Positions 6,814 through 6,892 of a stretch of 64,000 nucleotides of DNA are shown here, piece by piece. Each line of letters begins with the position of its first letter. The stretch's first letter is position 1. The stretch comes from an uncultured Gemmatimonadales bacterium. GTDB taxonomy: Bacteria > Gemmatimonadota > Gemmatimonadetes > Palauibacterales > Palauibacteraceae. The notes beneath the pieces were generated by a model that was given only the letters and a program-made list of their open reading frames with translations, made no database searches and was not told where the DNA came from. The translations under genes were made by a program, and so were the position numbers. The stretch is from the NCBI GenBank assembly GCA_963807645.1, contig CAWECO010000009.1, positions 131-64,130 of the forward strand. Direction: 5' to 3'.

Positions 6814-6892
6814 CAGGAGGTCGTCGGTAGTCCTCGCGCTACGCGCTCGGAATGTCTCGCTTCGCTCGACACCGATTCCGATCGGCTCCACT
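6814..6892 (+). mobile_element. tRNA-Ala 3' fragment 3 with 44-nt structured insertion in the T-loop
   Basis: caggaggtcgtcggt[agtcctcgcgctacgcgctcggaatgtctcgcttcgctcgacac]cgattccgatcggctccact. Confidence 0.85.

Follow-up and report, generated by a model that had tools for sequence, protein, structure and literature searches.

Transfer RNA (tRNA) genes are classic landing sites of foreign DNA, and the partial gene copies left over at such sites are normally treated as inert scars. Among the closest described systems are the tycheposons of Prochlorococcus, where tRNA genes form integration hot spots with stacked elements and partial-tRNA repeats (bioRxiv 10.1101/2020.12.28.424599), and the ssrA islands of Dehalococcoides, likewise a hot spot of stacked elements with partial-tRNA repeats (PMC3146451). 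Here we describe a locus of comparable layout in an uncultured Gemmatimonadales bacterium, within a stretch of 64,000 nucleotides (the window; positions 131–64130 of contig C9 in a nine-contig, 86%-complete genome, G000), where a 3′ fragment of tRNA-Ala(TGC) is interrupted in its T-loop by a 44-nt insert made of two hairpins (hp1 and hp2). Like the tycheposon-type hot spots, it has an intact tRNA gene with co-oriented partial 3′ copies that delimit cargo blocks, newer blocks push older ones outward, and population variants differ by whole blocks. It departs from them in two respects: integrase genes are all but absent from the blocks and their vicinity, and the partial tRNA copies carry a conserved, structured T-loop insert; the word "hairpin" is absent from the tycheposon preprint.

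The host fragment (6816–6891) consists of the variable loop, the T-arm and the acceptor 3′ strand of tRNA-Ala(TGC), and the insert, which together with its relatives we call the module, lies between T54 and C56, where it takes the place of the single T after GGT. An uninterrupted version of the same tRNA piece, reading GGT-T-CGATTCC, stands 47 nt upstream of the insert-bearing one (6769–6801). The features of this region are listed below, R1 being a covariance model of the module.

6759–6801, + strand: tRNA-Ala 3′ fragment from the anticodon loop, with intact T-loop (GGT-T-CGATTCC)
6802–6815, + strand: 14-nt spacer between the plain and the insert-bearing fragment, as in the layout at C5:310626–310734
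6816–6828, + strand: variable loop, T-stem 5′ strand and T54, GGAGGTCGTCGGT (R1 match C9:6945–7024, 87.1 bits)
6829–6872, + strand: the 44-nt insert (hp1 and hp2), defined by its fold and by covariation in the family
6831–6851, + strand: hp1, tcc-tc-gcgc-tac-gcgc-tc-gga
6853–6871, + strand: hp2, tgtc-tc-gc-ttc-gc-tc-gaca
6873–6891, + strand: T-loop remainder (C56 on), T-stem 3′ strand and acceptor 3′ strand, CGATTCCGATCGGCTCCAC, whose last base is a block boundary in the population
6893–6920, no strand assigned: terminator-like hairpin found behind several fragments, read from the sequence without a terminator-tool score

The hairpin motif at 6893–6920 also follows window position 4990, C5:287745 and C5:289598. 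The original prediction, made from the letters of the window, had proposed two hairpins of the same design within the T-loop insert, and here sequence and folding agree, the minimum free energy structure of the top strand being exactly hp1 plus hp2. Of the closing stem tcggt/accga that it drew around them, the pairing is peculiar to this copy, whilst the flanking helix across the family is the T-stem. It had further pointed to a tail copy beginning at the insertion boundary, which indeed starts at C56 (position 13142), and to a second occurrence of hp2 near 16843–16860, where the hp2 17-mer is present at 16844–16860. Five copies of the 20-nt tRNA tail stand in the window, where chance would give 0.02, and ARAGORN reported zero tRNA genes there.

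The insert belongs to a sizeable family. R1 detected 13–15 modules in this genome, among them divergent copies that immediately follow tRNA-Ser(CGA), -Leu(TAA) and -Pro(TGG), and the tRNA types that carry them are Ala, Arg, Ser, Leu, Pro and Lys. The hp2 17-mer has six copies in the genome at zero mismatches, each in front of a tRNA tail, with near variants behind tRNA-Arg(CCT), tRNA-Ser(TGA) and tRNA-Ser(CGA). Among genomes of the same family 37 of 114 contain modules, and the distribution follows genera (g1 15/15, g6 10/11, g11 2/2, g20 0/36, g7 0/12, g3 0/5), with 12 modules in G008 (96% complete) and 26 in G009 (90%); in a phylum-wide sample, 8 of 151 genomes gave an R1 match. The hp2 19-mer, allowing one mismatch, is found in 19 of the 114 family genomes, and nearly all of its 30 distinct contexts lie between a T-stem 5′ strand ending in GGT and a CGA/CAA T-loop remainder, across many tRNA types. 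In metagenomes, the string at the hp1/hp2 junction retrieved 84 stretches, in 63 of which R1 identified 93 modules. The recurrence elsewhere that the original prediction anticipated is therefore plain, and 19-mer contexts and R1 matches agree that several tRNA types are hit. Modules have two to four hairpins. One hp1 type, GCACGC..GCGTGCTC, is present in eight copies in the genome, all eight inside modules and spanning at least five tRNA types, so that insert lineages are not bound to tRNA identity. Separately, a 25-nt string downstream of the tRNA-Ser(TGA) module (C3:377568–377592) recurs with 93–100% identity on many contigs of genus relatives, and represents an unrelated short repeat family.

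Pairing is conserved in this family. When the T-stem, hp1 and hp2 are taken together, 77.2% of cells pair across 28 copies of the family, compared with 70.4% in column shuffles (none of 500 reached the observed value) and 26–47% when the partners are slid, and 48 double-sided changes were counted against 22 expected. The 87 distinct metagenome rows, an independent set, but one whose rows were aligned to the model and hence lean towards it, gave 81.9% paired against 72.6% shuffled (0/500) and 128 double-sided changes against 41.8 expected. The stem of hp1 takes the forms gcgc/gcgc, gcacgc/gcgtgc, gcctgc/gcaggc, gaccgc/gcggtc and others. In hp2 the outer frame GTC-TC-(stem-loop)-TC-GAC is constant, and the inner stem changes with compensation (GC/GC, GTCAC/GTGAC, CC/GG, GCC/GGC, GGC/GCC). 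The internal TC/CT mismatch of hp2 is kept in 55 of 56 cells of the 28 copies, whose loops read TTC (15), TAC (9) or TGC (4); on the bottom strand, the TC/TC mismatches and T-N-C loops are tandem GA pairs and G-N-A loops. Both stem covariation, with no shuffle in either set reaching the observed pairing, and conservation of the GA/GA and GNA motifs, which persist while the inner stems vary, came out as had been predicted.

The flanks of the module are constrained as well. GGT precedes the insert in 70 of the 87 distinct metagenome rows, and its first base is A in 73. Three Ala fragments stand behind the same beta-lactamase block and share the same upstream flank; the one at C5:289580 carries the insert, those at C5:287727 and C9:6913 do not. 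A second context makes the rule sharper: 11 complete copies and one truncated copy of the 87 rows lie in the anticodon arm of a pseudo-tRNA-Ser(CGA), on its antisense strand. That strand reads GGT-TTT-CGAG, the module replaces the T's with its polarity unchanged, and the resulting copies read GCCGGT, then the insert, then (T)TCGAGACC. Module polarity thus tracks the local GGT..CGA and not the sense of the tRNA, and at seven loci an anticodon-arm module and a sense T-loop module of the same pseudo-tRNA form back-to-back pairs (eight in total). The anticodon-loop copies show no duplicated flank and no duplicated tail, and a homologous pseudo-tRNA lacks the anticodon-loop insert in G011 (L028) and has it in G008 (L247:6940–7200). 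The flanks of the 87 rows and the presence and absence of the insert between homologous fragments bear out a discrete insertion of fixed polarity at GGT/CGA. At the orthologous tRNA-Ser(TGA) site, the same comparison met downstream flanks that are not conserved, and the contigs of relatives stop there. The pseudo-tRNA-Ser(CGA) itself, with a degenerate 5′ half and hairpin clusters in the anticodon loop (inverted) and T-loop, is recurrent (L247:6940–7200 on the − strand, L315, L311, L291, L288, L298, L270 and L300), and a remnant lies in this genome at C1:602131–602207.

The modules are restricted to pseudo-tRNA sequences. Their position inside tRNA-like sequence would also suit a T-loop intron of a functional tRNA, the alternative that the original prediction had set against itself. 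Removing the insert in silico yielded a full tRNA from none of 71 metagenome modules and none of nine modules of this genome (0/80 parsed; a further 22 and two did not parse), and the intact tRNA genes beside modules carry no insert. A product of chance or of assembly fares no better: the site is covered by independent contigs of four sediment metagenome runs, and the expectation of 0.02 for the tail repeats speaks against coincidence. Intron and artefact are both practically excluded. Two odd ARAGORN calls on C7 were false positives in coding sequence.

The reading we favour, which we hold tentatively, takes the insert for a discrete hairpin module that is polar and site-specific, belongs to displaced tRNA fragments and may be read by an enzyme. 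The spare tRNA 3′ fragments would be direct repeats left behind tRNA genes by the stacking of foreign gene blocks, and the module a structured insertion acting at the DNA level, between the GGT and CGA of T-loop-like sequence. The hairpins, on a folded single strand, and the GGT/CGA flanks would be jointly recognised by a trans-acting enzyme that would place the module or make copies of it; as a consequence, the T-arm of the spare fragment would be split and its 3′ tail kept as a block boundary. A bolder form of this reading, possible if rather doubtful, holds that the two-hairpin modules are a class of protein-less miniature mobile DNA, homing in one polarity and probably as folded single-stranded DNA to GGT^CGA, surviving only in spare fragments and pseudo-tRNAs, and moved by an enzyme that has no kinship with the integron, P4-type and Y1 recombinases examined here. 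We infer mobility from the distribution of the module alone, because the sequences analysed showed neither a free or circular form nor any copy beyond tRNA-like sequence, which in itself counts against the favoured reading.

The surroundings of the insert show what such fragments delimit. The window fragment is part of a tRNA-Ala(TGC) array that extends from C5:272790 across a contig break to window position 16883. The intact gene (C5:272790–272863) is on a contig other than the window's, and behind it lie at least 11 co-oriented 3′ fragments, with five further tail copies up to the end of C5 and five on C9, and with gene blocks of 1.8 to 18 kb between fragments. The remaining features of the array in the window are as follows.

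4946–4989, + strand: tRNA-Ala(TGC) 3′ fragment from anticodon loop to 3′ end, without insert; left border of the beta-lactamase-family block
5096–6649, − strand: serine beta-lactamase-family cargo gene, 517 aa (Pfam PF00144, E 7e-43)
13142–13160, + strand: tRNA-Ala tail from exactly C56, with no hairpins upstream; block boundary (joint 13159 to 16138)
16837–16860, + strand: 3′ half of hp1 (gtgctca) and a complete hp2 (R1 match C9:16937–17016, 50.8 bits), directly 3′ of the stop codon of an NAD(P)H-binding gene
16865–16883, + strand: diverged tRNA-Ala tail with 2 mismatches, the last fragment of the array; block boundary (joint 16883 to 8628)

The cargo includes serine beta-lactamase-family proteins, beta-propeller paralogues, TonB-dependent receptors, universal stress proteins, radical-SAM enzymes, dehydrogenases and an amidohydrolase. 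Among 152 open reading frames of at least 130 aa in the array and at the other module sites, no recombinase domain was found except in an IS110 fragment (C5:285522–286064), which is truncated and not at a module. The beta-lactamase-family block has three copies in the genome, the other two at C5:285842–287593 and C5:287854–289404; all are edged by tRNA-Ala junctions of the anticodon-loop type, and may reflect amplification between repeats or duplication in assembly.

Contigs from the four sediment runs join window positions 6891 to 8628 (two contigs of run X2), 16883 to 8628 and 13159 to 16138. The first two joints share 20 extra letters, which are the end of contig C5, and metagenome contigs likewise connect 8628 with the terminal letters of C5, which follow its final Ala module; C5 and C9 are therefore parts of one variable region and, because the end of C5, 6891 and 16883 all join 8628, block order varies among population variants. 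In population contigs, the 5′ half of the tRNA stands directly before 4946. In this assembly, what precedes 8628 is 7022–8627, which contains a CotH fragment and has no tRNA fragment on its right. Each breakpoint coincides with the final base of a tRNA tail, be it one with the insert (6891), with half of it (16883) or with none (13159). Since blocks begin right after the tRNA 3′ end with or without an insert, the insert does not visibly drive the array, and the earlier suggestion that it might do so is not supported. A layout of plain fragment, 13–14 nt and insert-bearing fragment occurs both at window 6759–6891 and at C5:310626–310734, and is consistent with a tRNA-spacer-module unit that was already resident and was displaced outward on entry of a block into the tRNA gene. 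As expected of an island, the intact tRNA gene is followed by partial 3′ copies that bound gene blocks, and the population varies in which blocks it has, the breakpoints falling at the repeats. Contrary to that expectation, no integrase gene was found inside the element, with one exception in the relative G013.

Further peculiarities of the array deserve mention. A tRNA-Lys(TTT)-type tail with an hp2-like hairpin (C5:307435–307452, − strand) lies in opposite orientation inside the Ala array, just before the Ala module at C5:307665, and a block may have brought in the module of another tRNA site. Fragments of a patatin-like phospholipase and a DncV-like nucleotidyltransferase adjoin in the window (2891–3454 and 3559–4107, + strand) and resemble the remains of a defence operon of the cyclic-oligonucleotide-based antiphage signalling system (CBASS) type. 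Several cargo genes are split or duplicated (9284–11636, − strand; 11688–13090, − strand; 13267–16072, + strand), with a TonB-dependent receptor in two frames, a second alcohol dehydrogenase N-terminal piece and an amidohydrolase in three frames; because metagenome contigs show single-base indels at 10530/10532 and elsewhere, some of these splits may be assembly errors.

A search for the enzyme covered the recombinases of this genome, its relatives and the metagenome loci. The genome encodes two Xer-like recombinases, one integron integrase and one Y1 transposase gene, and no TnpB and no serine recombinase was found in it. The Y1_Tnp gene (C7:393959–394474) is single-copy with no hairpins around it; Y1 is present in all 15 g1 genomes and in 2 of 11 g6 genomes, being absent from eight of ten module-bearing g6 genomes (63–95% complete), and in five other genomes with the 19-mer the hairpin core is within 1.5 kb of none of eight Y1 loci. 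Searching four tyrosine recombinases by tblastn against 80 metagenome loci (363,368 bases) gave no matches, with a working positive control; the integrase of G013 gave 80 pattern matches in the metagenomes, none of them confirmed, and clustering of neighbour proteins around metagenome modules returned only spurious or syntenic frames. Of the co-occurring recombinases or HUH enzymes that had been predicted, the integron integrase, Y1 and the P4-type integrase do not track the module; GIY-YIG was not searched for.

An integron-like site is a further explanation: apart from the two Xer-like genes, the integron integrase is the sole site-specific recombinase gene found, the blocks lack integrases of their own and the sites fold. 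The folded module would then be an attC-equivalent for the genome's IntI, with the tRNA T-loop serving as attI. This IntI (TIGR02249, 444.7 bits; C1:204569–205573, − strand) has an array of 18 canonical attC sites of its own, likewise on C1, with no sequence relation to the modules, which are without R″/R′ core sites. Of 19 genomes with the 19-mer, six have an IntI above the cut-off, as do 14 of the 95 lacking the 19-mer, a distribution that disfavours the link, and the module-rich G008 and G009 have no IntI match; we regard an integron-like role as very improbable. The integron on C1 is complete (186877–205573; loci L187 and L188) and lies outside the window; its 18 attC sites are ~85 nt long (CCTAAC...GTTAGGC), spaced 377–2643 nt apart, and the array converges on the integrase gene, as the sites lie on its 3′ side. 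Many attC centres of L187 read GGTTCGATTG, a T-loop-like string that may be chance, and one T-loop module (C1:184357–184442) lies ~2.5 kb beyond the attC array.

A number of observations weigh against the favoured reading. With standard nearest-neighbour DNA energies, the window copy folds no better than dinucleotide shuffles (z-scores of −0.46 for the top and −1.02 for the bottom strand over 60 nt, and of −0.24 and −0.07 for the insert alone), although GNA triloops and sheared GA pairs do not enter into this model, which is blind to such stability in DNA. The bottom strand is the more stable in 22 of 28 copies, by a mean of just 0.5 kcal/mol, and a few hp2 variants have perfect ordinary stems with no TC/TC mismatch. 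No module-placing enzyme was identified in the searches above. Outside the Ala array, every tail duplicate found here has hairpin-type sequence upstream (partial in the Leu-CAA duplicate at C2:10113), and no plain precursor fragments were found there. Tandem "empty" units of tail, spacer, T-stem 5′ strand and hairpins exist (L049, L254, L259, L269, L278 and L324), and look as if a mini-circle had integrated repeatedly or crossing-over had been unequal. Lastly, in G013 a P4-type integrase (Arm-DNA-bind_3, 62 bits, and Phage_integrase domains) begins ~95 nt from an Ala module.

Wobbles are mixed, with A.C on top (G.T on the bottom) in nine hp1 cases against four of the reverse, and T.G on top in the outermost hp2 pair of 18 copies. 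The strand specificity of the original prediction is no more than suggestive, the bottom strand being favoured in most copies but by a small difference and with mixed wobbles; a DNA-specific extra stability of the bottom strand may be considered a reasonable idea. The support for the importance of the hairpins is comparative and not thermodynamic.

The duplicates, the tandem units and the integrase in G013 also speak for a different explanation, in which the hairpins would be the attP arm of integrative blocks or mini-cassettes and the module a distal attR-type junction, with an integrase acting in trans. Consistent with this, intact tRNA genes are followed by a module after 5–180 nt (Ser-TGA, Ser-CGA, Leu-TAA, Pro-TGG, Arg-CCT), modules flank an integrase fragment on G008:C65, and blocks are gained, lost and re-ordered precisely at the tails. 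The relatives of the G013 integrase are distributed in the opposite way to the modules, however (g1 4/15, g6 0/11, g20 13/36, against modules in 15/15, 10/11 and 0/36), and none of the 80 metagenome loci has a tyrosine recombinase detectable by the four queries. Blocks of one type adjoin both insert-bearing and insert-free fragments, a duplicated tail is missing from the anticodon-loop copies, and the tRNA-specific T-stem 5′ strand is 44 nt away from where the crossover is presumed, a distance for which no duplex core site accounts. On these grounds we consider an attachment-site arm unlikely, if still the main contender to the site-specific hairpin module.

Action at the RNA level is another alternative, since hairpins with conserved tandem mismatches and triloops could form in RNA too. 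The module would be part of the tRNA trailer transcript, or of an antisense transcript coming from the neighbouring block, and serve as a processing, stabilising or terminating structure, in keeping with several modules 5–30 nt behind tRNA genes and some right behind stop codons (window 16830–16860). Yet Rfam (E up to 1) gave no family in window 1–20000 other than weak tmRNA-like matches on tRNA tails, the hairpins are not followed by a U-run, the genes beside the module show both orientations relative to it, and polarity goes with the local GGT..CGA. We therefore judge an RNA-level element to be improbable.

Sequence related to hp2 extends beyond the family. The exact 19-mer ATGTCTCGCTNCGCTCGAC occurs in more than 123 genome stretches of many phyla (loci L050–L171), with hosts among Chloroflexota, Reyranella/Vineibacter, Armatimonadota, Bacteroidota, Planctomycetota, one Bathyarchaeia metagenome-assembled genome and others. 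Most of these stretches continue with ATGAC and have an inverted partner hairpin (TGTCAT-TCCGAGCGNAGCGAGGA-ATC) 20–30 nt upstream, the two forming a paired-hairpin element of ~90 nt outside any tRNA context. Rfam returned nothing at gathering score for eight loci of this element, and seven matches to the 19-mer in viral contigs were, by eye, none in a tRNA-like context.

The tRNA scars described here bear a conserved, covarying structure with a fixed insertion rule, and the blocks between them are almost integrase-free yet visibly reshuffled in nature. If the module is a substrate of recombination or insertion, this would explain how integrase-less blocks move at tRNA genes, and would add a structure-specific type of site beside the integron attC. 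If the modules are miniature mobile DNA, the 19-nt hp2 in many phyla would point to a widespread, unnamed enzyme that reads hairpins. At minimum, R1 provides a sequence handle for finding such arrays. No description of such T-loop inserts was found in the full-text literature, subscription journals and supplements aside.

The module can be compared with several other folded DNA elements. With d(GCGNAGC) mini-hairpin DNA (PMC13037366, PMC3201870), the likeness is that the bottom strand of hp2 contains GCGAAGC and that the loop variants fit G-N-A; it is unlike that DNA in that a standard energy model, lacking GNA terms, shows nothing unusual and some members have ordinary perfect stems. With REPs (repetitive extragenic palindromic elements), their REPIN doublets and the REP-associated RAYT transposases (PMC2817692, PMC3116915, PMC3337134) the modules share short GC-rich hairpins and a single Y1 transposase gene in the genome. 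The left junction, GGT followed by A(G) in most rows, often reads GGTAG(T), resembling the heads, GTAG or GGTAG, that Table 1 of PMC2817692 gives for its REPs, but the GGT here is tRNA sequence. Unlike these elements as described there, the modules are not dispersed (8/8 hp1 copies are in tRNA-like modules), the order of the two hairpins is direct instead of inverted, no hairpins stand beside the Y1 gene, and modules are in 10 of 11 g6 genomes but Y1 in two of 11.

With the integron attC the module has in common that it is non-coding, imperfectly palindromic and situated at cassette borders, with structure more conserved than sequence and one strand proposed to fold; it differs in having no R″/R′ cores and no link to IntI, the true attC of this genome being unrelated, and its blocks are 1.8–18 kb rather than single open reading frames. 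IS200/IS605 elements have end hairpins on one strand, insert with polarity by a short fixed sequence, make no target duplication and move through single-strand intermediates. The module is like their miniature derivatives in its polar insertion (GGT in 70/87 rows), its hairpins at both ends on one strand and the unduplicated flanks in anticodon loops, and unlike them in that no copy with a transposase between the hairpins was seen and no TnpB was found in the genome, which has one Y1_Tnp gene. The integration hot spot at a tRNA gene, the partial-tRNA repeats and the stacked blocks are thus the known part of this locus, and the structured T-loop insert is the new part.

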